This document shows, in pieces, positions 10,677-62,630 of a stretch of 64,000 nucleotides of DNA. The stretch is from positions 165,139 to 229,138 of the forward strand of contig JACQUX010000038.1 of the NCBI GenBank assembly GCA_016210045.1. The letters run 5' to 3'. The notes beneath the pieces were generated by a model. It saw only the letters and a list, made by a program, of their open reading frames with translations. It made no database searches and was not told the origin of the DNA. The DNA comes from Deltaproteobacteria bacterium (GTDB taxonomy: Bacteria; UBA10199; GCA-002796325; JACPFF01). The position numbers and the translations under genes were made by a program. How positions within the stretch are numbered: position 1 is the stretch's first letter; each line of letters starts with the position of its first letter.

Positions 10677-10680
10677 CGGT

Positions 10681-10715
10681 CCAGCCACTAGCCACCAGTC
10701 ACCAGCCACCAACAA
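10681..10715. repeat. CCAGYCA heptamer tandem array (locus 1 of 4)
   Basis: The sequence ccagccactagccaccagtcaccagccaccaac lies at the polX/nth junction. Arrays of the same heptamer occur at 21661-21745, 46851-46960 and 49291-49380. Confidence 0.6.
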
Positions 10716-12674: not shown

Positions 12675-12908
12675 ATGGCGAATCGAGAAGATCGGGTCAA
12701 AGAGAACGTCGCGGGGCTGTTTTTTGTCGACTCGCAGTGCATCGATTGCAATTTGTGTCGCGACACGGCGCCGGCAAATTTCAAGCAACACGAAGCGGGT
12801 GGCTATTCGTTCGTGTATAAACAACCGGAAACCGACGAAGAGCGTCAACAATGCCAAGAAGCCCTCGAAGCGTGCCCCGTTGAAGCGATTGGCAGTAATG
12901 GGACGTAG
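12675..12908 (+). CDS. Ferredoxin (small 4Fe-4S protein)
   Basis: 77 aa with CIDCNLC...CP cysteine pattern, a single [4Fe-4S]-type ferredoxin signature. Confidence 0.7.
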   Translation: MANREDRVKENVAGLFFVDSQCIDCNLCRDTAPANFKQHEAGGYSFVYKQPETDEERQQCQEALEACPVEAIGSNGT

Positions 12909-12957
12909 TGTGTCGCACACAGTAAATGAGCAGATCATCCAGAATAAGATAGACTGA

Positions 12958-13112
12958 GTCCCAGCTCCGGGAGGGGAGTGCGGGGGGCCTGCGGGCCGTT
13001 CGCCTCGTGTTACGGCGCTCGGCTCACTGAGACCTCGCTCGGTCGAGCTTCAACACCATAGTACTCCCTCGCTCAGACTCGCCCGCAGGCCCCCCGCACT
13101 CCCATCCCGGGA
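12958..13112 (+). repeat. ~155 bp structured repeat element, copy 1 (conserved 95 bp core flanked by ~30 bp complementary terminal stems)
   Basis: Sequence ccgggaggggagtgcggggggcctgcgggc–core–gcccgcaggccccccgcactcccatcccgg. Its core (ggccgttcgcctcg.g.tacggcgctcggct.actgagacctcgctcggtcg.gcttcaacaccatagt.ctccctcgctcagactcgcccgc) is near-identical to 59688-59835. The terminal stems differ between copies but stay complementary. Confidence 0.7.
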
Positions 13113-13483
13113 CCATCGTTTCAATCCGGATAGTCAACCAATCAGATTGAATCATGTCCTTCGTGCTTCGGGGGGCAAGAGAGAAGGCCGTGCAGTGTTC
13201 GACTCCTCATAACCGGTTTGTGTCTCGATAAACATTGATCTTAAGAAAGAGGCTACCCAGGCACCGCTGTCTTATGGCCGGAGTCCAGGCCGGCGGGCGC
13301 CAGGGGCTCTCGCAGCCGTTTTCCCCTTGCGTAATCTAACGACGAAAACGGCGAGGGCGAGCGCGCGGCGGCTCGATGCCGCCGCGATAGCGTACCCTGG
13401 CGCCCGCCGGCCCGGGGCTCCGGCCCTTCGTGTGCCAGCAATGCGTGGACAGATGATCGTAAAGGCATACGTATGGCGTGCTG

Positions 13484-14497
13484 TTATCTCCGCTTCCCCT
13501 TCGCAACCGCCCACTCCACGAGCAGGTCTTGGAACGCGGGGTCGTTCTTGAGCGGGAAAAAGTCGTCGCCGATTTGGACCCACGTCTTGAGTTGGTGGCT
13601 GTTGTCGAGTGGTTGCGCTTGTTGCAGGGTCGCGATCGTTTTTGCCACATCGCCCGTCGCCGCGTAATAGCTGATTAGGGCCGTGAGGCCGCCGAATTCT
13701 TTGGTCACTTCGTCGAGTTTGACCTTTGCCACGCGTCGTTCGGCGTCGCGGGTTTTCCCCATCGTGGCGGCCAGCGCCGCAGTGAGCAGATCCGCTTCGT
13801 ATTGGTGAGCGCCGCGCGTTGCGCGTCGGGCCTTGCTGTAGGCTTGGGTTGCTTTGCCGACGAACCGCTTGTTCATCGTCCCGTGATTTTTCAGAAAGAG
13901 GATCAGGTTGTGATACGCGACGCCGAGGTTGAGGTAGTAATGGTGCTCGTCGCCCGGCGCCGGCTTCACGCCCGCTTGGGCCTCGCCGATCCGCTCCATT
14001 TCCCGAATCAGCATCATGCCGCGTACGGAGGCTGGTTCCAAATAAAGACGCCGTACGGCCGCAGCGATCTCGCCGTCGGCCAGCAGCGTGACGACAGCGC
14101 CGGGAATTGCGGTCTGCAGCGGCATGTTTCGCGGTTTTTCGAGCAGCGCAGGGAGTGGACGCTTGCCACGGGATGCGGCGGGGCGCGCTTTGTCCTTCGC
14201 CGCGTGACTTTTCTTCTTCGTATCCGTCTTGGCGGCACTCTTACTCTTGGCCTCTGTCTTGGTGGACTTCCCCTTCGCGGCGGGAGTGCCTTTCTTGGTC
14301 GGAGGCTGCGGCGTCTTCGCCGGCGCCGTTTTCGGTGCAGTGCCGGCCTTTCGGCCTGATTGGACCCAGGTCGGATTAGCGGCCGCGCCGACGAACGGGG
14401 CCGCGAGCGCGACGATGAGGAACAGGGTCACCAAACTGCCGAACGGGCGTAGAATCTGCATGGGAGGTCGTATAGGGAAGAGTGCTCGCGCTGTCAA
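13484..14497 (-). CDS. Hypothetical secreted protein with Lys/Ala/Pro/Thr-rich low-complexity region and helical C-terminal domain
   Basis: N-terminal signal-like segment (MQILRPFGSLVTLFLIVALAAPFVGAAA), then a KTAPAKTPQPPTKKGTPAAKGKSTKTEAKSK... histone-H1-like tract. The true start is possibly at 14461. Confidence 0.5.
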   Translation of the reverse strand: MTARALFPIRPPMQILRPFGSLVTLFLIVALAAPFVGAAANPTWVQSGRKAGTAPKTAPAKTPQPPTKKGTPAAKGKSTKTEAKSKSAAKTDTKKKSHAAKDKARPAASRGKRPLPALLEKPRNMPLQTAIPGAVVTLLADGEIAAAVRRLYLEPASVRGMMLIREMERIGEAQAGVKPAPGDEHHYYLNLGVAYHNLILFLKNHGTMNKRFVGKATQAYSKARRATRGAHQYEADLLTAALAATMGKTRDAERRVAKVKLDEVTKEFGGLTALISYYAATGDVAKTIATLQQAQPLDNSHQLKTWVQIGDDFFPLKNDPAFQDLLVEWAVAKGKRR

Positions 14498-21660: not shown

Positions 21661-21745
21661 GGTGACTGGTGGCTAGTGGCTGGTGATACGTGGTCCGTTC
21701 CCCAGTCACCAGCCACCAGTCACCAGTCACGATTCACCGCACATC
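21661..21745. repeat. CCAGYCA heptamer array with inverted arms (locus 2 of 4), between convergent genes
   Basis: The sequence gtgactggtggctagtggctggtga...ccagtcaccagccaccagtcaccagtcacg has inverted heptamer blocks able to form a long hairpin. Confidence 0.6.
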
Positions 21746-37266: not shown

Positions 37267-37953
37267 GTGCGAAAGTGGATACGCTTTACCCGGCAAGATC
37301 GTCTGGAGCACTGGCTGGTCGCGCTCTGTTTTCTGTTGTTGGTGTGGACCGGGCTGCCACAAAAATACTACGGAGCCGAGGTGTCGCAGTGGATCATCGC
37401 CCACAGTGGCGGGATCGATTACACCCGATTACTACATCGCGTGGTCGGTTTTGTTTTTACTGCGCTGACCGTATGGCATGTCGGCTCGCGCGTCTGGGGC
37501 TTTCTGCGCAAAAAAATTGCCCCCTCGATGCTGCCGACGAAACGCGATTTTACCGACGCGATCACGAATCTACGCTATTACATGGGGCTCACGGACCACG
37601 AAGCGCGCTGCGATCGATTCGATTACAAACAGAAGTTCGAATATTGGGGCATGCTGATGGGGAGCGCCGTGATGATCGCCACCGGGCTGCTGCTCTATGC
37701 GCCGGCATGGTTCACGCAGTGGTTGCCCGGGGTGTTGATCCCCGCCGCTAAAGTGGCGCACAGCAATGAGGCAATGTTGGCACTGCTCGTAATCGTCGTT
37801 TGGCATTTGTACGGCGTGGTGTTCAGCCCCGAAGTCTTCCCGCTCGATACCAGTATGTTCACCGGCAACATTTCGGAAGAGCGGATGAAGAAAGAACATC
37901 CGTTGGAATACGAACGCCTGCAGCGCGAAGCGGAGACGCCGCCGCTCACTTGA
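37267..37953 (+). CDS. Membrane cytochrome b (Ni/Fe-hydrogenase / formate dehydrogenase gamma-subunit-type, PF01292-like)
   Basis: 228 aa, 4 TM helices with conserved His residues (..EHWLVA.., ..HRVVGF.., ..VWH..) in the arrangement of dihaem cytochrome b quinone-interacting subunits. Confidence 0.75.
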   Translation: MRKWIRFTRQDRLEHWLVALCFLLLVWTGLPQKYYGAEVSQWIIAHSGGIDYTRLLHRVVGFVFTALTVWHVGSRVWGFLRKKIAPSMLPTKRDFTDAITNLRYYMGLTDHEARCDRFDYKQKFEYWGMLMGSAVMIATGLLLYAPAWFTQWLPGVLIPAAKVAHSNEAMLALLVIVVWHLYGVVFSPEVFPLDTSMFTGNISEERMKKEHPLEYERLQREAETPPLT

Positions 37954-40900
37954 CGTCGAAGTAGCGCGCGGCGGGATGGTGCACGATCAAGGCCGACGTG
38001 CTGGCTTCCGGATCCATTTGGAACGTCTCGCTGAGACTGACGCCGATCCGTTCCGGTTGCAGCAATTCAAACAGCAGCGCCTGATCCTCTAAATTCGGAC
38101 ACGCGGGATATCCGAAACTGTACCGACTCCCTTGATACCCTTGGTGATACAGTCCCTCGATCGTTGTCGCGTCGGCTCCCGTAATGCCAAGTTCCACGCG
38201 GATTGCCCGGTGCCAATATTCCGCCAACGCCTCCGCCGTTTCGACCGAAAGCCCGTGGAGATAGAGGTAATCCGTGTAATTGCCCGCTTCGTAATACTGC
38301 TGACACACGGCCTTCGCGCGCGCGCCGATCGTGACCACATGCAGCCCGATCACGTCCATCGTGCCCGCATCGAGCGGCCGGAAGAAATCCGCAATGCAGT
38401 GATACGGCTCTCGCGGCTGCCGCGGAAACGTAAACAGCACGCGCTCTTGCCGCGTCTCCGGATCCAACACGATCACGTCATTGCCCACCGCGCCACAGGG
38501 GAAATATCCGTACACCACCTGCGGCGCGAAAATCCCCTCCCGCTCCACGCGTCCCGTCAACTCGCGAAAGATCGGTTCAATTTTTTCCCGCACCAGCGCT
38601 TCATACTCCGCCTTCCGCATCTGCCCCTGCCGAAACTGCCACTGCCCCTTGAACAACGCCGTCCGATTAATCAACGGCCACAGTTGCCCCACAGCAATAT
38701 CCCCCACCACCCGCGTCCCCCAAAACGGCGGCGTAGGGATTGAAGCCGCCATCTTAATGGCAGAGCGCCTGCCTCGTCCCCCCAATAAAGTGGAGGATTG
38801 CGATGCAGCCGGAGACGGGATGGGGTCCGCGGGGGGGACTTGCGGAGCCCGCTGCAACGATGTTGTTGATACCGCAGCGGGCGAGCATGAGCGCGGCTGC
38901 GGCGCGTAAGCCGCAGCCGACGCGTGCCCCCCCGCGGACCCCATCCCGTCTCCGGCTGCCACCTTGCATTCCGAAACGACCGCTTCCATCACCCGCAACC
39001 CCTCGAACGCATCTTTACCATAATACACCGCCCGCCCATACGCGCTCGCCAAGTCGCTCTCCACAAAGCGCCGCGTCAACGCCGCCCCGCCGCAGATCAC
39101 TGGGATCGCCAGGCCGCGGTGCGACATCTCTTCCAAGTTTTCCTTCATGATCGCCGTCGACTTCACCAGCAAGCCCGACATCCCGATCGCGTGCGCCGCA
39201 TGCTGTTCCGCCGCCGCCAACATCTGTTCCAACGGGACTTTAATGCCGAGATTGTAGACCGTGTAGCCGTTGTTGGTCAGGATGATATCGACCAAGTTCT
39301 TTCCGATGTCATGCACGTCGCCTTTTACCGTTGCCAACACGATCTTCCCCTTCGATTGGCCCTCGACCCGCTCCATGTGCGGTTCCAGGAATGTCACTGC
39401 GGCTTTCATGACTTCCGCCGACTGGAGCACAAACGGGAGTTGCATCTTGCCGGCGCCGAACAACTCGCCCACGACTTTCATCCCGTCGAGCAGGATCGTG
39501 TTGATAATTTCGAGCGGCGCGTAGCGCCCCATTGCCTCGCGGAGCAACGGTTCCAAGTCGGTGCGGCGTCCGTTGATGATCCGTTGTTTCAACCGTTCTT
39601 CGAGCGGTGCGGCGCGATCCTCCGCTTCGCTGGGACCCGTCTCCAAACGGTTCGTCTGAAAATAGGCCATGAACGCCGTGAGCGGATCGCCTTGGCTGCG
39701 GTCGTTGTGCACCAGCCGCTGCGCCAACTGGAGTGCCGCATCGGGGATTCGGTTGAGCGGCAAGATCTTCGCGGCGTGGACAATGGCGGCGTCGAGCCCG
39801 GCCTCGACAGCGGCGTGCAAGAAGACGCTGTTCAACACGACGCGGGCCGCCGGATCGAGGCCGAACGAAATATTGCTGACGCCCAAGACCGTGCGCACGC
39901 CGGGCAATGTGGCCTTGACTTGGCGAATTCCGGCAAGCGTCTGGACGCCGGCATCATGAAATTCAGCGTCGCCGCTGCCGAGCGTGAACGTCAGCGTGTC
40001 GAACAACAGATCTTCCGGCTTCAGGCCGTATTCTTCCACACAGAGGCGATAGATCCGTTGCGCAATGGCGACTTTTTGTTCCGCGCGCTTCGCCATCCCT
40101 TGTTCGTCGATGGTCAGCGCAATCACGCCGGCGCCGAAGCGCCGCGCCAGTTCCAAGACACGCCGCGCGCGCGCGTCGCCGTCTTCCAAGTTGATCGAGT
40201 TGATCAGGCAGCGTCCGCCGGCGAGCGCGAGCGCGTGCTCCAACACCGGGAGCTCGGTGGTGTCGATCACGAGTGGCAGCGGAACTTGCGTGACATAGCG
40301 GCGGATCGTTTCCGTCATATCGCGCACTTCGTCGCGGCCCACGTACGCTACGCAAACGTCGAGCGCGTGACAGCCTTCGGCGACTTGTTCTTTCGCCATC
40401 TCGACCAGGCCATCCCAATCGTCGCGTTGCAATAAGTCGCGGAATTTTTTCGACCCGTTCGCATTGGTCCGCTCGCCGATCAGAAACGGCCGCGGCTCTT
40501 GGTCGAGCGCTTGCGCGGTGTACATGCTGCTCACCGCGGGCGTCCATTCCACCGTGCGGGCGTTGGGCGCTCGTCCGGCCAGCGCGATGGAGAGTGCGCG
40601 GATATGTTCGTCGGTCGTCCCGCAGCAGCCGCCAACTGCGGCGACGCCGTAATGCTCGACGAAATACGTCTGCCACTGGACGAATTCCTCCGGCGTGAGG
40701 CGGTAATGGGCGTGGCCGCCGACATTTTCCGGCAGTCCGGCGTTTGGATTGATCACGATCGGGACGGGACAGTGTTGACTTAAATGGCGGACGTTGTCTT
40801 CCATCTCCTTCGGACCGGTCGCGCAGTTCATTCCGAAGAGATCGATGCCATACGGCAGCAATGCCGTGCAGGCCGCGCCGATTTCGGTGCCGATCAACAT

Positions 40901-41491
40901 GGTGCCGGTCTGTTCGATCGTGACGGAGACGAGGATCGGGACGCGCTGTCCGGCCGTGGCCATCGCCTCGTGCGCCGCGACGATCGCGGCCTTGACTTGC
41001 AGCAAGTCCTGACAGGTCTCGATCGCGAAGAGATCCACGCCGCCTTCGAGTAATCCGAGACATTGTTCGGCATATGAAAGGCGCAATTCGTCGAATGTGG
41101 TTTGCCCTAAGGTGGCGAGTTTAGTGCCGGGACCGATCGAGCCGGCCACAAAGCGCGGTCGTTCCGGCGTGGCGAATTGGTCGGCGGTCCGTCGCGCGAG
41201 CGCGGCGGCGCTGCGATTCAGTTCTTGCGCCTGTGCAGCGATGTCGTACTCCGCCAATACGATCCGGTTGGCGCCGAACGTATCAGTCTCGACGATGTCG
41301 GCGCCGGCCGCATAATAGCGGGTATGAATGTCGGCAATCGTATCTGGGCGGGTGACGACCAGATATTCGTTGCACCCCTCCAGCGCCTTGCCGCCGAAAT
41401 CGTCCGCGGTCAGCCCGACCCGTTGGATCATCGTGCCCATGCCACCGTCGAATACGAGCACGCGCCGTTGTAGAAGCGTCAACAGTTCCAC
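37946..41491 (-). CDS. metH: Cobalamin-dependent methionine synthase
   Basis: 1181 aa with all four modules: Hcy-binding (N-term), pterin-binding, B12-binding (DxHxxG-type region ...GDVHDIGKNLV...) and the C-terminal AdoMet activation domain. Confidence 0.95.
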   Translation of the reverse strand: MELLTLLQRRVLVFDGGMGTMIQRVGLTADDFGGKALEGCNEYLVVTRPDTIADIHTRYYAAGADIVETDTFGANRIVLAEYDIAAQAQELNRSAAALARRTADQFATPERPRFVAGSIGPGTKLATLGQTTFDELRLSYAEQCLGLLEGGVDLFAIETCQDLLQVKAAIVAAHEAMATAGQRVPILVSVTIEQTGTMLIGTEIGAACTALLPYGIDLFGMNCATGPKEMEDNVRHLSQHCPVPIVINPNAGLPENVGGHAHYRLTPEEFVQWQTYFVEHYGVAAVGGCCGTTDEHIRALSIALAGRAPNARTVEWTPAVSSMYTAQALDQEPRPFLIGERTNANGSKKFRDLLQRDDWDGLVEMAKEQVAEGCHALDVCVAYVGRDEVRDMTETIRRYVTQVPLPLVIDTTELPVLEHALALAGGRCLINSINLEDGDARARRVLELARRFGAGVIALTIDEQGMAKRAEQKVAIAQRIYRLCVEEYGLKPEDLLFDTLTFTLGSGDAEFHDAGVQTLAGIRQVKATLPGVRTVLGVSNISFGLDPAARVVLNSVFLHAAVEAGLDAAIVHAAKILPLNRIPDAALQLAQRLVHNDRSQGDPLTAFMAYFQTNRLETGPSEAEDRAAPLEERLKQRIINGRRTDLEPLLREAMGRYAPLEIINTILLDGMKVVGELFGAGKMQLPFVLQSAEVMKAAVTFLEPHMERVEGQSKGKIVLATVKGDVHDIGKNLVDIILTNNGYTVYNLGIKVPLEQMLAAAEQHAAHAIGMSGLLVKSTAIMKENLEEMSHRGLAIPVICGGAALTRRFVESDLASAYGRAVYYGKDAFEGLRVMEAVVSECKVAAGDGMGSAGGHASAAAYAPQPRSCSPAAVSTTSLQRAPQVPPADPIPSPAASQSSTLLGGRGRRSAIKMAASIPTPPFWGTRVVGDIAVGQLWPLINRTALFKGQWQFRQGQMRKAEYEALVREKIEPIFRELTGRVEREGIFAPQVVYGYFPCGAVGNDVIVLDPETRQERVLFTFPRQPREPYHCIADFFRPLDAGTMDVIGLHVVTIGARAKAVCQQYYEAGNYTDYLYLHGLSVETAEALAEYWHRAIRVELGITGADATTIEGLYHQGYQGSRYSFGYPACPNLEDQALLFELLQPERIGVSLSETFQMDPEASTSALIVHHPAARYFDVK

Positions 41492-46850: not shown

Positions 46851-46960
46851 TGGCTGGTAAGCGGCGCGCATAGCACACGTTGTTCCCAGCCACCAGTCAC
46901 GAGTCACCAGCCACCGCTTTTCCCAGTCACCAGTCACTAGCCACCAGTCACGCATCTAAA
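46851..46960. repeat. CCAGYCA heptamer tandem array (locus 3 of 4)
   Basis: The array cccagccaccagtcacgagtcaccagccaccgcttttcccagtcaccagtcactagccaccagtcacg lies between convergent genes, preceded by an inverted block gtggctggt. Confidence 0.6.
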
Positions 46961-49148
46961 ACTCCGTCACTTCCACCGGTGTAGTTTGCGGGGGCAGTTG
47001 ATAGCCGGGGTTGATGCCGATGCCGAGTTGTCCCGAGCTTGGATCGCCCCACGCCCAGACAGTGCCGTCGTTCTTGAGCGCCAAACTGTGGCGCATTCCC
47101 GCCGCGACGGCGATCACGCGGTCCAAATTCACGGTCGTGGGGTCGCAAGAGGTCCGGTCGATCGTCGTGCCGTCGCCCAGTTGCCCATTGTCGTTCTCGC
47201 CCCACGCGAAGACGCGGCCGCTCGCATCGATCGCCAAGAAATGGTTGCTATTGGCGCCTAAGCCGGCATCCACGATATTCGACAATGCAGTGACCTGGCG
47301 TGGGCCGGTGTTCCATTCGTTCTCCACGTCGCAATAGCTGCCGCCCCAGACCCAAAGTGTGCCGTCGCGTTTGACGGCCAACGAGACGCCGCTGCCTGCG
47401 GCAATGTCGACGACATCGGAGATCCCGGGGATTTGGGTGGGAGTTGGGACGTAGCGGTCGTCGGGAGACGAATTCGAATCATACGGCGTAATCTCGCCAT
47501 TCACGGACCATCCCCACCCCCACACCGTGCCGTCGCTGCGCAGTGCCAGATTATGAAACGATCCCGCTGCGAGTGTGACGACGTTTGACAGCGAGCCGAT
47601 GAGTACCGGGGTCAAGCGGTCGGTCGTCGTGCCATCCCCCAATTGTCCGGTGCCGTTATCGCCCCAGGCCCAGATCGTGCCGTCGTTGCGCAGCGCAATG
47701 TTGTGACTGTCGCCCGCGCCGACAGTAATGATATTGCTGAGCGACGAAACTTGGATCGGCGTCGGGCTATAGGTCGTGGTCCCGTTGCCGAGTTGCCCCG
47801 AACGATTACTCCCCCACGTCCAGACCGTGCCGTCGCGTGCCCGCGCCACGGCGTGTTGCGGCCCGGCGCTTAGCTGAGTCGCTGCGATGTTCACCACGGC
47901 TGGCGTGAAGACGTTGGTCTGTCCTTCGCCCGTGCCGAGCGTATATTCCACGCCATCATCCACCGCCCACCGGATATAATTGTTGCCCCATCCGTACACG
48001 GTCCCATCGACATCCAACGTGTACGAAGTCACGTTGCCAGCAAAGACGCCGACGAATCCGGTCGACGCGGCAGTGGTCGATGCCAACGTGACGTCATCGT
48101 CCGCCGCACGACCTGGGACGGCGAGCAGCTCTTGGGCGGTGCATCCGCTGGCCGCGCTACCAGCCAGCGTAACGCAGCTTTGCGACGCGCTTTCTCCGTC
48201 GACCGTGTAGGTTGTGTAAAGTTTGCCCGAGGCCGGGGTCCAAGTGGCCGTGAATTCGACATCCGCTTCGGCGCCGAAGTCCGCGTGCGTCCCGAGCACT
48301 GCGGCCTGTACCACGGTGTCGCTGGCCGCGGTCTTGTCGCGGGCGATCGACTGTGACGAGCCCGCCGTTTCGGTCAAGTACGCGTGCGACGTCTCCACGT
48401 CGAACCCGGTGAGATCGGGGAGCGACGTCGACCAATACAGCTCGAGTTGTCGGCTAGTCGTCGCTTGCTGATCCCAGACGCCGCTCAGCACGTAGGTTTC
48501 CACCCCGCGGATCTGCGCGTCTTCGTTGGTGCCGGTGTTGTGCGTCCCGAAGAGGCGGAAACAGCCGGCCCCTTGTCCGGTGTCGTCTTCGGCCGGCAGC
48601 GCGGTGAATTTCCCGACGAAGACGCGGCGATTGTTCACATACAGCCGGACACACATCGGCAGTTCGCCCGCATTGCCCGAACAACTGGCGGAGCAATCGA
48701 CGGTCGAGATCTGTTGATTGGACAGCGCGGGAAACGTGAAGGACGAAAAGTCGAGTCGGTAACTGCTGCCACCTGCCGTCGTGCCGGTGGTCGCGGTCGT
48801 CGCGGTGTTATTTTCGACTTCGATGCCGCTGAGCAACAGCAGCAGCGCGTCTAATCGATCGCTCGCATCGTCGACAAATGAGAGCGCCCGTTCCGGCGCC
48901 CCGCTGCCAGAGAGTGCCTTCGCCGACTTGGCCGCGCTGACACTGCTGCTGCTCGAGCTCACCGTGCCGACGCCGACGCCTAAACTATTAGGGAACGAGA
49001 AGTTGCCGGTGGCGGACGGCAGTTCAATCGGAATCGGCGTGCTGGTTCCTCCGCCGGTCGGGACCCCGGCGCCGCCACAGGCGGCCACGCCGATACACAG
49101 CATCAAGACAGAGATACACCGCCAACACACCTGGGACGGTTTTCGCAT
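46956..49148 (-). CDS. Secreted/lipoprotein RCC1-repeat (regulator of chromosome condensation-like beta-propeller) protein
   Basis: The C-terminal half is seven consecutive ~50 aa repeats of the form ...HxxALxxDGTVWxWGxNxxGQLGxG.... The N-terminus is a signal/lipobox (MLCIGVAACGGAG), then a Thr/Ser-rich region. Confidence 0.8.
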   Translation of the reverse strand: MRKPSQVCWRCISVLMLCIGVAACGGAGVPTGGGTSTPIPIELPSATGNFSFPNSLGVGVGTVSSSSSSVSAAKSAKALSGSGAPERALSFVDDASDRLDALLLLLSGIEVENNTATTATTGTTAGGSSYRLDFSSFTFPALSNQQISTVDCSASCSGNAGELPMCVRLYVNNRRVFVGKFTALPAEDDTGQGAGCFRLFGTHNTGTNEDAQIRGVETYVLSGVWDQQATTSRQLELYWSTSLPDLTGFDVETSHAYLTETAGSSQSIARDKTAASDTVVQAAVLGTHADFGAEADVEFTATWTPASGKLYTTYTVDGESASQSCVTLAGSAASGCTAQELLAVPGRAADDDVTLASTTAASTGFVGVFAGNVTSYTLDVDGTVYGWGNNYIRWAVDDGVEYTLGTGEGQTNVFTPAVVNIAATQLSAGPQHAVARARDGTVWTWGSNRSGQLGNGTTTYSPTPIQVSSLSNIITVGAGDSHNIALRNDGTIWAWGDNGTGQLGDGTTTDRLTPVLIGSLSNVVTLAAGSFHNLALRSDGTVWGWGWSVNGEITPYDSNSSPDDRYVPTPTQIPGISDVVDIAAGSGVSLAVKRDGTLWVWGGSYCDVENEWNTGPRQVTALSNIVDAGLGANSNHFLAIDASGRVFAWGENDNGQLGDGTTIDRTSCDPTTVNLDRVIAVAAGMRHSLALKNDGTVWAWGDPSSGQLGIGINPGYQLPPQTTPVEVTEF

Positions 49149-49290
49149 ATCGTCATGGAAGAGCAAAGGACATGCCGCAGCCCCTCGATGCCAACGCGTC
49201 AATATCGCAACGCTTTTATCCGGCGTATCCGTCCGCCCGGGTAGGCGTTCACCACAAAATCCTCGAAATGAATGAGAATGCACTCATACG

Positions 49291-58458: not shown

Positions 58459-59619
58459 ATGCGCAAATGGGGAGCGAGTATTGTGGTGGCGGCGGCGCTG
58501 TTCGGAGTGCTCTGCAGTGCCATCGCGTTGAAACATTACGTCGGCATCGCACAAGGCGGATTAAGCGAGCCCTCGTTCTGCAACATCAGCGAGGCGTTCA
58601 ATTGCGACGCCGTCGCCGCGAGCAGTTATGCTACGCTGGGCGGCCTTCCGGTCGCGGGACTCGGCCTCATCTTCTTCGCGGCGCAGGCCCTGTTCGGGCT
58701 CTGGGTCCTGTTTCAAGGCGAAGCGGCGCATGCCACGGCCGGCTTCGGCCTTTGGTTGGCAGCGTTGGGGCTCATCCCCAGTGCGTATCTCCTCTATGTC
58801 ATGACCGTCGTGTTGGGAACGTACTGTCTCACTTGTCTCGGCATGGACGCCGCAACACTGCTGATGCTGTTCGGCTGGGCATGTTATGGGCGCGCCGGCT
58901 TGGCTGCCTTGAAAGATCGCAGCGCTTGGGTGCGGCACGGTTCCACGTTAGGCGTGCTGTTTTTCGTCGGGATCTTGTTCCTCGTCAACCTGCGCAGCGC
59001 GACGGGCGGCGGCCAAGTGAAGCCGGAAGTGTTGCGCGAGGCGCTGCGGGCCTTTCAACGTCAGCCGCAAGTACAACTGGCGATCAATCCGCAAGAACAT
59101 CCGGTATGGGGCGCGCCGGACGCCAAGGTCACGATCGTGGAATTCAGCGACTTCGAATGTCCGCATTGTCAAAAGGCGGCGTTCTTTATTCGCCCATCGT
59201 TGGCGGAATTCCGGCGCCACGTGCGTTTCGTGTTCGTCAATAATCCGCTCGATCAGTCGTGCAATGACGACATCAAGCACCCGGCCCACCAATTCGCGTG
59301 CCTCGCCGCGCGCGCGGCGCTCTGCGCCGGAGACGTGGGTCGGTTTTGGGAATATCACGACGCCGTATTCAAGATCCAAACGAAGCTGTCACGCGAGCGC
59401 TTGATCGGCCTCGCGAAGACGCACGGGATCGAAGAGTCCGCATTTGTCGCCTGTCTCGATGCGCCGGAAACTGACCAACGGGTGCGCCGCGATCTGGAAA
59501 TCGGTCGTAGTGTGAAAATCAGCGGTACGCCGACCGTCTATGTGAATGGGCGGCTCCTCCGCATTTGGCAAAACGCCGAATTCCTCCGCGCCGTCCTCAA
59601 CGCCGAGTTGTCTCGATGA
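58459..59619 (+). CDS. Vitamin K epoxide reductase (VKOR) domain fused to DsbA-like thioredoxin-fold domain
   Basis: N-terminal 4-5 TM helices with CxxC (TYCLTCLG) and loop Cys pair (FCNISEAFNC). C-terminal periplasmic thioredoxin-fold with CPHC. Confidence 0.8.
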   Translation: MRKWGASIVVAAALFGVLCSAIALKHYVGIAQGGLSEPSFCNISEAFNCDAVAASSYATLGGLPVAGLGLIFFAAQALFGLWVLFQGEAAHATAGFGLWLAALGLIPSAYLLYVMTVVLGTYCLTCLGMDAATLLMLFGWACYGRAGLAALKDRSAWVRHGSTLGVLFFVGILFLVNLRSATGGGQVKPEVLREALRAFQRQPQVQLAINPQEHPVWGAPDAKVTIVEFSDFECPHCQKAAFFIRPSLAEFRRHVRFVFVNNPLDQSCNDDIKHPAHQFACLAARAALCAGDVGRFWEYHDAVFKIQTKLSRERLIGLAKTHGIEESAFVACLDAPETDQRVRRDLEIGRSVKISGTPTVYVNGRLLRIWQNAEFLRAVLNAELSR

Positions 59620-59687
59620 TGCATACGCCGAGAGCTTCAAGGCATGCCGTAGTAGAGCATCCAGATTGAATTGTAGCGTCACATGCC

Positions 59688-59835
59688 CCGGCAGGGGCGT
59701 GAGGGGAGTCCCGCGGGGCCGTTCGCCTCGCGGTACGGCGCTCGGCTTACTGAGACCTCGCTCGGTCGGGCTTCAACACCATAGTGCTCCCTCGCTCAGA
59801 CTCGCCCGCGGGACTCCCCTCTCGCCCCTGCCGGG
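59688..59835 (+). repeat. ~155 bp structured repeat element, copy 2
   Basis: The core is near-identical to 12988-13082. The terminal stems (ccggcaggggcgtgaggggagtcccgcggg ... cccgcgggactcccctctcgcccctgccgg) differ from copy 1 but remain self-complementary. Located ~70 nt after the VKOR-DsbA gene stop. Confidence 0.7.
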
Positions 59836-60077
59836 ACCTTTTTACAATTTGGATACTCTACTAAAGCACATCGCACTCAATGCCGAAGCGCCTGCTCCTC
59901 TCAGCGGGTGACGCCGGCGGAAGGCCTCCAGTCTGGAGCCGCACAGCGTCGGCAAGGCCAGCTCTTACGGACCTGGAAGGCGTCAGCGAGCAGCGAAGAC
60001 TGGAGGGACCCGCCGGTGGCAGGACCCGCCCACGTGGCCAGAAGCGAATTAGAAGATGTGTGCTGGATGCTAGGTGT

Positions 60078-62630
60078 TCACGGTCTCGCGAGCGATGACG
60101 CAGATGGAATGTGATTCGAGTTCCCCATAACTTTTTGTTCCAATTCAATCCACGTCACATACGCCGGTAGCACGACCACGGCTGTGAGCAGACAGGTGAT
60201 CTCTGCGAGCAAGCCCGTCAGTCCGAAGGTCTGGAGCGCGCCGTTGCGCGAGATCATCAATACGCCGTAGCCGAGAATCGTCGTAAGGGAACAGAGGCAG
60301 ACCGCACCGCCGACTTGTTGCACGGCCGTGCGCATGGAGCCGGGGCCGTCTTGCCGATACCGTTGGAAGATGTTGACGGCGTAATCGACGCCGATTCCGA
60401 ATGCGATCGGCAGTGCGACGAAATTCAAAAAGTTGAGTTTGACGCGGAACAGCGGCAGACACGCGATCAGCCAAATGATCCCGAGACAAAGACTCGCGAG
60501 CACCTTCGTGACCGCGAACCGATCGCGGAACGTCAGCCAGACGACGAAGACGACTAACGCCAGCGCCAACAGCGAGACCCGCGGCCCCTCGCGCGTGACG
60601 ACGTTCAGCAGGTCGGAAAAGATCACCGCCTCGCCCGAGGCATAAATGATCTTACCAGACGCGAGTTCAATCCGACTGAGCAGTCCGGCGAATTTAACCA
60701 GCTCCCGACCGTCCCACAAATTGGCAGAAGAGGTCGGATACACGTAAATGACGAGCCCCGTTCGCCCATCCAATTCGCGGAATTTTTCGATGACCGTCAC
60801 CGGCAAATCCTTGATCTTGACCGGCTGCAAGTCGACAGTCCGCTCGAATTCATCGACTTTTTCCCGCTGCGCATCGGTCAGAAACTTCAACGTGTTGCCG
60901 GTCAGGAGTTTCCGGATGCGTTGCAAGGCGGCCAGCTTGTCTTCCTGTTGTTCGGGGATGAACGAAAACAGCGTCTTGCATTGATCGAAAATCCGGTGTC
61001 CCGCCTCGGTGTACAGATTCGCGGCCTTGGCGTGAATGGCGTCGCAAATCGGCTGTACGTCGGCGAGGTCGTCGGCCAAGATCACGGCCGGCGAGGCCGA
61101 TTCGCCGAAGACGTCGTCGGCGTGGCTCTGCGCCCATTTCTCCCACGACTCCTGCTGTTCCTGCGGTTTGAATCGCAGCTTATTGAAATCGTACTCCAGC
61201 GAATCGGGAATATACCAGCCCGCGACGACCAGCGACGTGGCCGCGAGGCACGCCGCGCTGATCAAGACCGGACGCCAGCGCTGCGTGGCGAGACGTGCCA
61301 ACGGATTCATGAACAATGCGAACGGCGTGCGCGCGTTCGCGCGGAAGCGGAGCGGCCACATCCGTTCGGTGCAGTGGATCCAGCCGGGGAGCAATCCATA
61401 CGTGGCCAGCCAGCAACCGACCATGCCGATGCTGCCGATCACGCCAAACTGATTGAAGCCGCGCACCTGCGCGACCGCGAGCGCCAAGAACGAAAAGACC
61501 GTCGTGGCACACGACGCGAACGTGCCGCGCCAGGTCTGATGCATCGCGATCGCCATCGCGCCGATGGGCGGATGCGCGCGCTCCCGTCGTTCTTCCAGAT
61601 ACCGCGCCATCAGGATCAGGCCGTAGTTGATCCCGTTGCCCAAGATAATCGAACCGAGGAAGGCCGTTTGCGAGGTGAGATAGCCGATCGTGTAGCGCGC
61701 AAACGTCAGCGCAGCCAACGTGCCGAGTCCCGCCGCGCCGATCATCAGGAAACACATTCGGAATTTGCGAAAATAGAGCAATACGGTGCTCCCGACCAGC
61801 AACGCGCACAGCAGCAGCGTGTGTTGTGCATCGCCGACGATCGTCTCGTACTCGGTGATCATTTTCGGATAACGCCCGCCGAATCCGATCCGCAGCCCAA
61901 CGCCATATTGTTCGGGATGGAGTTTATCGACTAATGCACGCGCGGCAGCGATCAGCCGCTTCGCGTCTGCGACGTTCAGCGAACCCGCCTTCGGTTTCAA
62001 CACCACGATCGCCAGCGTCGCTTCGGCATTGGTGAAATAGCCGTCTCGGTTTTTCCCCGGCTCTTTGGAGGTGTGGCGATACTTCCCTTCGATATCGGTA
62101 ATGTCGAAGTTCGGCGGATCGTCGATGTCGACGAAGAATGGATTCTTTTTCAGTTTTTCGTAACGAATTTGGCGATCAAGCCGTTTTTCGATCTCATGCA
62201 AATCAGGGAGATCGATATAGAGGTAGCGATATTTTTCCGTGAAGTCATCGATCGGCTTGGTGTTGTATTCGACGCGGTCCACCAACTCCCGGAGCCGCTC
62301 CGGTGCCGCAGCGGCGAAATCGTCGATGAAGCGCCGCATCGTCGGCCAATCGGGCCCGGCCGCGCCATCCGCCATGTTGCCGCCGCCAATCAGTAACAGC
62401 AAGTTGGCGGTGGAACGGAAGCGCTGTTCGATTTCTTCCAACTCCTGCACGCTCGGATAGCTACGCGGCAACATGCGCTTGAAGTCGCTGTCGATCCCCA
62501 AACGGCGCACTGCCAACGTCGTGAGCACGGCGCATGTCATCCCGAGGATGACAAATCCCCACGCATACTTCCACGCGACCCGACTGTATCGTTCCCAAAA
62601 CGTGGCCATACGTCCGTGCGTCCGTAGCAT
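60078..62630 (-). CDS. MMPL/RND superfamily transporter (12 TM, two large periplasmic loops)
   Basis: 850 aa with duplicated 6-TM plus periplasmic-domain architecture and MMPL-type motifs. Resembles hopanoid/lipid exporters of the HpnN type, but the substrate cannot be inferred. Confidence 0.85.
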   Translation of the reverse strand: MLRTHGRMATFWERYSRVAWKYAWGFVILGMTCAVLTTLAVRRLGIDSDFKRMLPRSYPSVQELEEIEQRFRSTANLLLLIGGGNMADGAAGPDWPTMRRFIDDFAAAAPERLRELVDRVEYNTKPIDDFTEKYRYLYIDLPDLHEIEKRLDRQIRYEKLKKNPFFVDIDDPPNFDITDIEGKYRHTSKEPGKNRDGYFTNAEATLAIVVLKPKAGSLNVADAKRLIAAARALVDKLHPEQYGVGLRIGFGGRYPKMITEYETIVGDAQHTLLLCALLVGSTVLLYFRKFRMCFLMIGAAGLGTLAALTFARYTIGYLTSQTAFLGSIILGNGINYGLILMARYLEERRERAHPPIGAMAIAMHQTWRGTFASCATTVFSFLALAVAQVRGFNQFGVIGSIGMVGCWLATYGLLPGWIHCTERMWPLRFRANARTPFALFMNPLARLATQRWRPVLISAACLAATSLVVAGWYIPDSLEYDFNKLRFKPQEQQESWEKWAQSHADDVFGESASPAVILADDLADVQPICDAIHAKAANLYTEAGHRIFDQCKTLFSFIPEQQEDKLAALQRIRKLLTGNTLKFLTDAQREKVDEFERTVDLQPVKIKDLPVTVIEKFRELDGRTGLVIYVYPTSSANLWDGRELVKFAGLLSRIELASGKIIYASGEAVIFSDLLNVVTREGPRVSLLALALVVFVVWLTFRDRFAVTKVLASLCLGIIWLIACLPLFRVKLNFLNFVALPIAFGIGVDYAVNIFQRYRQDGPGSMRTAVQQVGGAVCLCSLTTILGYGVLMISRNGALQTFGLTGLLAEITCLLTAVVVLPAYVTWIELEQKVMGNSNHIPSASSLARP

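Follow-up and report, generated by a model that had tools for sequence, protein, structure and literature searches.

The window analysed here is a stretch of 64,000 nt from a contig of a Deltaproteobacteria bacterium (JACQUX010000038.1), and it holds two copies of a repeated palindromic element, called copy 1 and copy 2 below, which lie 46.7 kb apart and consist of a conserved centre between long complementary arms. The element is a real, hitherto uncatalogued small palindromic repeat, and it is more likely to be a miniature mobile hairpin of DNA than a gene for a dedicated RNA. In a more specific form, to which we give about an even chance, the element represents a new family of non-autonomous hairpin-forming repeats comparable to MITEs (miniature transposable elements with inverted repeats), REPINs and ERIC elements, with arms kept complementary at the DNA level and a centre that acts as a sequence-specific module. 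The dispersed copies (two) without a match to any known RNA family support this reading, and with two full copies it stays provisional.

Anatomy of the repeat and mirrored changes in its stem

Comparison of the window with itself gave a gap-free match of 103 nt at 92% identity between 12993-13095 and 59716-59818 (family D2), and an nhmmer profile of the centre matched the window at two sites only (E 1.7e-29 and 3.5e-29). The near-identical core in two copies, reported in a first-pass annotation made from the sequence alone, was thus recovered. Each core is enclosed by a G+C-rich stem of 30-31 bp. The arms, described in the annotation as reverse complements of each other, are 30 nt in copy 1 and 31 nt in copy 2 and 97% complementary in both cases, and the centres between them (84 and 87 nt) differ at five sites. 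Scanning for arms with 30-130 nt between them gave no inverted repeats of this class in 20 mononucleotide shuffles of the window.

Homology between the copies reaches past the bounds first proposed (12958-13112 and 59688-59835), which contain the repeat but fall short of the ~213-215 nt found by pairwise alignment (Table 1). The four segments outside the centre, i.e. both outer flanks and both arms, are collinear, and each aligns better than shuffles, of which between 1 and 50 in 2000 match the observed alignment score. The arms had been presented as differing between the copies; they do differ, and in mirrored fashion, but they are homologous and not unrelated, with 22 of 28 aligned pairs identical. 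With homology retained in the arms and outer flanks as well, the alignments define the whole nested palindrome of ~213-215 nt as the homologous unit, in which conservation drops from the centre outward. The outer A+T-rich flanks of copy 2, TAGTAGAGCATCCA..AATTGTA and TACAATTTGGATACTCTACTA, also pair (DNA fold z = -8.85), and the outer inverted repeat of copy 1 is degenerate. Beyond the outer repeat homology ends within ~30 nt, and the flanking genes are unrelated.

The stems were compared left arm against left arm and reverse-complemented right arm against right arm, copy 1 versus copy 2. In this comparison 22 pair columns are identical, five carry two-sided substitutions (G>C, A>C, C>A, G>T and T>C, i.e. 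four transversions and one transition), and one internal 1-bp indel is mirrored on both arms. Two changes are one-sided, and these are each copy's lone mismatch (G.A in copy 1 and T.T in copy 2), so that the compensatory differences seen at first reading hold up on a column-by-column count. Pairing is strictly Watson-Crick, with 59 of 61 positions paired and no G.U among the 61. The differences are evenly distributed along the stem, with no step at any junction, and the innermost five base pairs are identical in both copies. With each pair taken as one unit, 6 of 29 stem columns have changed as against 5 of 84 centre positions (Fisher p = 0.03), and p falls to 0.005 when the one-sided changes are added. 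The arms do vary more than the centre, yet the contrast is weaker than it first appears, because each mirrored change is counted twice.

It had been argued that this pattern indicates selection on a base-paired structure, a conclusion which our comparison does not force. Stepwise compensation in RNA usually proceeds via G.U intermediates, a route that is closed to transversions and indels. The excess of transversions, the mirrored indel and the complete lack of G.U pairs fit DNA templating better than such stepwise compensation. During replication, template switching at quasipalindromes copies one arm onto the other and gives mirrored changes without selection (PMC7202029), and making one arm from the other would likewise yield them without selection. 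By themselves, mirrored changes along a long perfect stem do not testify to a functional RNA.

Two properties of the centre were considered as signals and rejected. Three direct repeats (C)TCGCTC(G/A)G are found in it (13015-13080 and 59738-59803), with starts 20 and 34 nt apart, and as CGCTCRG repeats they barely exceed the shuffled background, in which 13-17 of 500 sequences have at least as many. Nor does the centre encode a protein: the sole frame open through the element has four non-synonymous and one synonymous change. On its minus strand, GGGAG is followed by an 11-codon open reading frame (ORF), MVLK[L/P]DRARSQ, which is probably fortuitous.

Table 1. Positions in the window of the two copies, of the two hairpins of similar geometry (I3 and I10) and of the genes upstream of the copies; the ends of the full units are approximate.
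Feature	Position	Strand	Evidence
Copy 1, full unit (outer flank, stem, centre, stem, outer flank)	12929..13141	+	pairwise alignment, flank shuffles, nhmmer E 2e-69
Copy 1, left arm (30 nt)	12967..12996	+	inverted repeat I5, folds
Copy 1, conserved centre (84 nt)	12997..13080	+	5 differences from copy 2; fold no better than shuffles; Logan contigs end at 13038
Copy 1, right arm	13081..13110	+	inverted repeat I5, arm alignment
Copy 2, full unit; outer A+T-rich repeat 59650-59675 / 59843-59863	59650..59864	+	alignment, DNA fold, nhmmer E 6e-71
Copy 2, left arm (31 nt)	59687..59717	+	inverted repeat I4, 97% complementary
Copy 2, conserved centre (87 nt)	59718..59804	+	comparison with copy 1, nhmmer, fold
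Copy 2, right arm, then terminator-like T run GACCTTTTTAC	59805..59835	+	inverted repeat I4
I10, arms ~30 nt, 89-nt interior with two hairpins	13275..13425	.	inverted-repeat scan, folds
I3, 33/33 perfect arms, 89-nt interior with two hairpins	38805..38959	.	inverted-repeat scan; fold z = -14
Ferredoxin gene (Fer4_13), upstream of copy 1	12675..12908	+	domain match
VKOR-DsbA fusion gene, upstream of copy 2 (start codon uncertain, ORF opens 58333)	58459..59619	+	domain match

Position, folding and the RNA alternative

The window is ordinary chromosome, with rho, dapA, dapF, metH and polX among its genes, and both copies occupy gaps between convergent genes. In the gap of copy 1 the plus-strand ferredoxin gene faces a minus-strand gene for a 325-aa protein with no Pfam domain (13484-14461), and in that of copy 2 the plus-strand VKOR-DsbA gene, which runs to 59619, faces a minus-strand MMPL transporter gene (60078-62630).

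An element acting as RNA is the alternative that survives best, although we consider it unlikely. The repeat would then be part of the 3′ untranslated region (UTR) of the upstream gene, where its stem ends or protects the transcript or where RNase III releases a 3′-UTR-derived small RNA, and the unpaired centre with its C-rich ACUCCCUC stretch would be displayed for targets or for a protein, the stem being kept by selection on RNA structure. The position of the copies suits this proposal. Both lie in the sense orientation, and their stems start 58 nt (copy 1, ferredoxin) and 67 nt (copy 2, VKOR-DsbA) past the stop codons, with no terminator-like site between, where the annotation had given ~50-70 nt; both this location and the argument from orientation rest on n = 2. 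Moreover, a T run, CCTTTTTAC, follows the stem in copy 2, whereas copy 1 has CGTTTC only, with no terminator-like site called there, and an interior of 84-87 nt is atypical for an intrinsic terminator. A second hairpin beside copy 2 (59914-60017) was also considered and rejected, its fold being no better than shuffles.

Folding gives a similarly divided picture. The stem is very stable, and the folding energy of both copies lies 8-9 SD below dinucleotide shuffles on the plus and the minus strand alike (z -8 to -9), but in neither copy does the plus strand fold better than the minus strand, which equals or surpasses it. A centre that is conserved in sequence and unpaired is what one would expect of a seed region, and two centre differences (C to U and A to G) convert Watson-Crick to G.U pairs in a small plus-strand hairpin. 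However, the small hairpins predicted inside the centre differ between the copies, and the fold of the centre alone is no more stable than that of its shuffles (plus strand z = -0.09 and minus strand z = +0.67 for copy 1, -0.21 and -0.22 for copy 2). Correia and ERIC elements do act on mRNA in the proposed way (PMC10969869). Against it stand also the main stems themselves, with no G.U pair, two-sided changes that are mainly transversions and one mirrored indel, and the presence of an element of the same geometry within a coding gene, described below. The covariance models of Rfam 15, applied to the whole window at the gathering threshold, gave 0 matches, and in E-value mode they returned generic long-hairpin miRNA models only, far under threshold; no promoter-like site was found in or ahead of either copy. 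Nothing points specifically to RNA. The options of a structured 3′ UTR or a small RNA raised at first reading thus lack specific support, given the Rfam result, the equal strands, the unstructured centre and the missing promoter-like site, and of the options named there the REP/MITE-like mobile unit is the one favoured by the evidence.

Same-geometry hairpins, probable further copies and a proposed mechanism

The inverted-repeat scan of the window returned exactly two further long hairpins of the element's size, I3 and I10. I10 is located 59 nt past the stop of the minus-strand gene 13484-14461, in the same gap as copy 1, and hence each of the two convergent genes there has its own element behind it. 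I3 lies in frame within metH (37946-41491, minus strand), where its 155 bp encode ~50 low-complexity residues in the linker, itself poorly conserved, that joins the B12-binding domain of methionine synthase to the activation domain. In the nearest MetH homologue (P0006, 64% identical) this linker is ~40 residues shorter, and other homologues have long linkers. A perfect 33-bp inverted repeat in a coding linker cannot be explained by selection on the MetH protein, and by analogy I3 looks like an in-frame insertion of the kind known from Rickettsia palindromic elements (RPEs) and intragenic REPs. The occurrence of a same-geometry element inside a coding gene therefore argues for mobile DNA.

The four long inverted repeats of the window have interiors of 84, 87, 89 and 89 nt and belong to three unrelated sequence families, and under a uniform model of 30-130 nt the chance of such similar interior lengths is ~0.01. 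The same scan in 1.34 Mb of other bacterial loci found 11 weaker repeats (best score 24, as against 27-33 here), with spacings scattered from 33 to 129 nt. All four hairpins have the motif CCGG(N)AG towards the outer end of the arm (GCCGGAG in I3 and I10, CCGGGAG in copy 1 and CCGGCAG in copy 2), a likeness that is suggestive and no more. Unlike the centre of copies 1 and 2, the interiors of I3 and I10 form two strong hairpins (z -2.9 to -4.3). It is a long shot, but the hairpins of the window may belong to one mobile superfamily that is held together by structure and not by sequence: its three unrelated families have in common a stem of 30-33 bp, an interior of 84-89 nt and, close to the outer ends, CCGG(N)AG. 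If this were true, it would imply a mode of propagation or maintenance that measures shape and rebuilds one arm from the other in each round. In the sole family seen twice, the stem is free to change if both arms change together, and the interior is held constant. We know of no description of a shape-measuring, arm-regenerating mechanism in bacterial repeats, in which it is normally the ends that are conserved. What interests us most in the window is that three unrelated families have one geometry in common and that, in addition, a stem is free to vary yet matches itself.

Assembled sequencing runs provided a view of copy number beyond the window. The organism is present at low coverage in the Logan assemblies of SRR12113385, SRR12113390, SRR12113401 and SRR12113422, where look-ups matched for the ferredoxin, the 325-aa neighbour gene and cytochrome b561; neither the VKOR-DsbA nor the MMPL gene was matched with the start codons tried, and the 337-aa start of copy 1's neighbour gene gave nothing either. 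Two contigs from two runs (L001 and L002) cross the ferredoxin gene and the left arm, and both end at 13038 in the centre of copy 1. Since the two arms of copy 1 have no 31-mer in common, this stop is not due to the symmetry of the copy itself. Position 13008, which immediately precedes the shared stretch, is among the five sites at which copies 1 and 2 disagree. The stop is most simply explained by another copy that makes the assembly graph branch, and we infer at least a third copy, with an arm unlike that of copy 1. The number of copies called for by the annotation stands at two full ones, both in the window, with at least one more deduced from contig ends. A further contig (L084, one run only) enters I10 from its gene and ends in the I10 interior at 13373. 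A contig end at 38834 in I3 was discarded as evidence of copy number, being explained by I3's own 33-nt perfect repeat at k = 31.

In the mechanism that we propose, the element would spread, or would have spread, as DNA within the genome and would persist where insertion is harmless, as in gaps between convergent genes. The complementarity of the arms may be maintained by intramolecular template switching or by hairpin-templated repair of an imperfect palindrome; alternatively, only copies able to form a hairpin in single-stranded DNA might be propagated. A process of this sort acting on the arms at the DNA level would make mutations, including transversions and an indel, appear mirrored. The centre changes 3-4 times slower than the stem, for which reason we take it as the sequence-specific part, most plausibly recognised in trans by a protein whose gene lies elsewhere. 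If transcription of the upstream gene reads through, its transcript would unavoidably fold into the 30-bp stem, which as a by-product could serve as a 3′ barrier, as a terminator (copy 2, with its T run) or as an RNase III site.

Several results weigh against the mobile-hairpin reading. The complete copies number two, too few for a statistical test of covariation, and both of them lie in the same orientation close behind a plus-strand gene, which would also suit an RNA function. Domains of transposases, integrases, HUH proteins or reverse transcriptases were found in 0 of 48 predicted window proteins. Target-site duplications, whose absence or presence the annotation had wished to see, were looked for, and none is evident at the stem or at the outer boundary of homology, where two copies cannot fix the exact ends. 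I3 and I10 have no sequence homology to copies 1 and 2 detectable by nhmmer in the window. Known MITEs and REPINs keep their ends and vary in the middle, and the layout here is reversed. Finally, no homologue of the element was found outside the window among GTDB representatives, JGI metagenomes, IMG/VR, plasmids, phages or translated ORFs. An exact 20-mer of the centre had 0 matches in the GTDB representative genomes and JGI metagenomes, a second 20-mer had one unrelated match in the metagenomes, 17- and 18-nt words in IMG/VR gave chance matches only, and blastn against plasmids and phages gave only noise. The translated open frame of the element had no match among 5.8 billion proteins and one irrelevant repeat protein among 1.84 billion representatives, and nhmmer profiles of the element found nothing over 1.34 Mb of VKOR-DsbA and MetH loci of relatives.

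None of the resources searched contains a close relative of the organism, as judged from the whole window, loci L004-L083 and proteins P0001-P0120. The best full-length match to VKOR-DsbA in the GTDB representatives is 33% identical (metagenome-assembled genomes, MAGs, of Bdellovibrionota and Acidobacteriota), partial matches reach 40% over the best segment, and the best match to the C-terminal half of MetH among the 5.8 billion proteins is 64% identical. Homologues are so distant that there is no comparable intergenic DNA in which orthologous empty sites could be sought. A distant VKOR-DsbA homologue in a Pseudobdellovibrionaceae MAG (L007, 11200-11280) likewise has a hairpin behind it, within 10 nt, with 24-nt arms, a 33-nt loop and an unrelated sequence.

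A quite unlikely alternative is nested insertion, in which the mobile unit is a ~96-nt conserved block with a 5-6 bp terminal inverted repeat (GCGGG...CCCGC) that inserted at the tips of pre-existing intergenic palindromes, so that the arms are target DNA and differ because the targets differed. The identity of the innermost five stem base pairs is in keeping with it, as are the uninterrupted long palindromes that fill intergenic gaps in this genome (16008-16096, 30718-30790 and 50359-50439) and the REP dimers found inside longer palindromes in Anabaena variabilis, Halothiobacillus neapolitanus and Thermomicrobium roseum (PMC3733652). However, nhmmer found neither an arm sequence without the centre nor a centre without arms in the window, the stem differences are evenly spread without a step at the junction, and two independent insertions at the identical position of diverged palindromes would need strict targeting of the apex. 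Moreover, I3 and I10 match in the sizes of stem and interior while their interiors are quite different. The uninterrupted palindromes themselves form a separate family, in which arms of 29-41 nt around GGGGACAGGTACCTT / AAGGTACCTGTCCCC enclose loops of 7-15 nt. Two of them occupy a gap between convergent genes as far as the stop codons, and the third is flanked by divergent genes; they are REP-like or resemble a bidirectional terminator.

It is very improbable that the two copies are a relic of one old segmental duplication of a hairpin-bearing intergenic piece, later homogenised in part by gene conversion, or an assembly artefact: that just two full copies and no homologue elsewhere were seen would agree with it, but copy 1, from its flank through the left arm into the first part of the centre, recurs independently in Logan assemblies of two runs and hence is not the artefact of one assembly, the flanking genes are unrelated with homology stopping within ~30 nt of the outer repeat, the contig ends point to a further copy, and the six mirrored changes would still need a process that maintains pairing.

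Two other repeats of the window were recorded. Short arrays of the heptamer CCAG[TC]CA (10677-10710, 21661-21745 and 46882-46952) are intergenic, lie beside gene ends and in some cases form hairpins with the reverse complement. A repeat with a ~150-nt period at 47047-47836 corresponds to the RCC1 repeats of the protein encoded at 46956-49283.

Comparison with known systems

REPINs and bacterial interspersed mosaic elements (BIMEs) resemble the element in size (~100-150 nt), in their dispersed extragenic copies and in that the whole unit is one long hairpin in single-stranded DNA or RNA. REPINs are inverted doublets of REP sequences which form a long hairpin and are mobilised by RAYT tyrosine transposases (PMC3116915, PMC3733652), and compensatory changes across the hairpin are common in them (PMC3116915). 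Some REP dimers with conserved spacers are nested in a longer palindrome, the empty form of which was not found in those genomes (PMC3733652). In contrast to the element, however, REPINs have conserved REP ends with a GTAG or CGTC tag and a variable spacer, whereas in the element a variable stem encloses a conserved centre. Its arms are G-rich and not self-complementary, and thus are not palindromic REP units; GTAG, CTAC, CGTC and GACG are all absent from the centre, and the one place where GTAG occurs is copy 2's outer repeat. The window encodes no RAYT.

MITEs that fold as RNA, such as Correia of Neisseria, ERIC/IRU of enterobacteria and RUP, BOX and SPRITE of pneumococcus, are likewise small, non-coding and multi-copy, with long terminal inverted repeats. 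They are intergenic, often at the 3′ ends of genes, and their co-transcribed stem acts via RNase III or RNase E sites or in a terminator-like manner (PMC10969869, PMC3184786). Their terminal repeats are near-constant, mostly with target-site duplications and a recognisable parent insertion sequence, none of which is demonstrated for the element, and the element has no sequence similarity to them. With classic MITEs it shares a small non-coding unit in dispersed copies (two in the window and at least one further deduced from contig ends), but its inverted repeats are less well conserved than the centre, with differences at 6 of 29 pair columns, and its outer repeat is degenerate in copy 1. The annotation stated that a classic MITE would have identical terminal repeats across copies; this is a fair statement, and for that reason the element is not filed as a classic MITE. 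Nor is it filed as a REPIN, having variable ends, a conserved middle, no REP units or tags, and no target duplication or parent element seen.

Integron attC sites are imperfect palindromes of 57-141 nt that lie 3′ of genes and are recognised as folded single-stranded DNA, with structure conserved above sequence. They conserve outer R''/R' boxes (RYYYAAC...GTTRRRY) and vary in the middle, whereas these boxes are absent at both copies, which lie 47 kb apart without a cassette array or an integrase encoded in the window. Retron msr/msd units also differ, since no reverse transcriptase lies downstream: the neighbours are the ferredoxin, the VKOR-DsbA protein, the MMPL transporter and a protein without domains.

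I3 alone resembles RPEs and intragenic REPs, which insert in frame in genes (PMC10969869, PMC3733652), being a palindrome of ~150 bp in frame in the flexible linker of a housekeeping gene and contributing ~50 residues. I3 belongs to an unrelated organism and its sequence is unrelated to RPEs; copies 1 and 2 are intergenic, and their homology to I3 is not demonstrable. The in-frame I3 in metH would mean that such units can remodel protein linkers outside Rickettsia. Quasipalindrome correction (PMC7202029), in which one arm is copied onto the other, would give exactly the mirrored substitutions and indel observed here, but it is a mutational mechanism and not an element family, and it leaves the multi-copy nature and the conserved centre unexplained.

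If the mobile-hairpin reading is right, the element adds a new family to the bacterial small palindromic repeats, from a lineage without close sequenced relatives and with the usual layout inverted, that is, a conserved middle and a stem that is free yet self-complementary. This layout could help to separate two usually confounded causes of 'compensatory' change, selection on the fold and templating at the DNA level in a quasipalindrome. The element is a genuine and somewhat unusual find within a well-populated kind of bacterial repeat.

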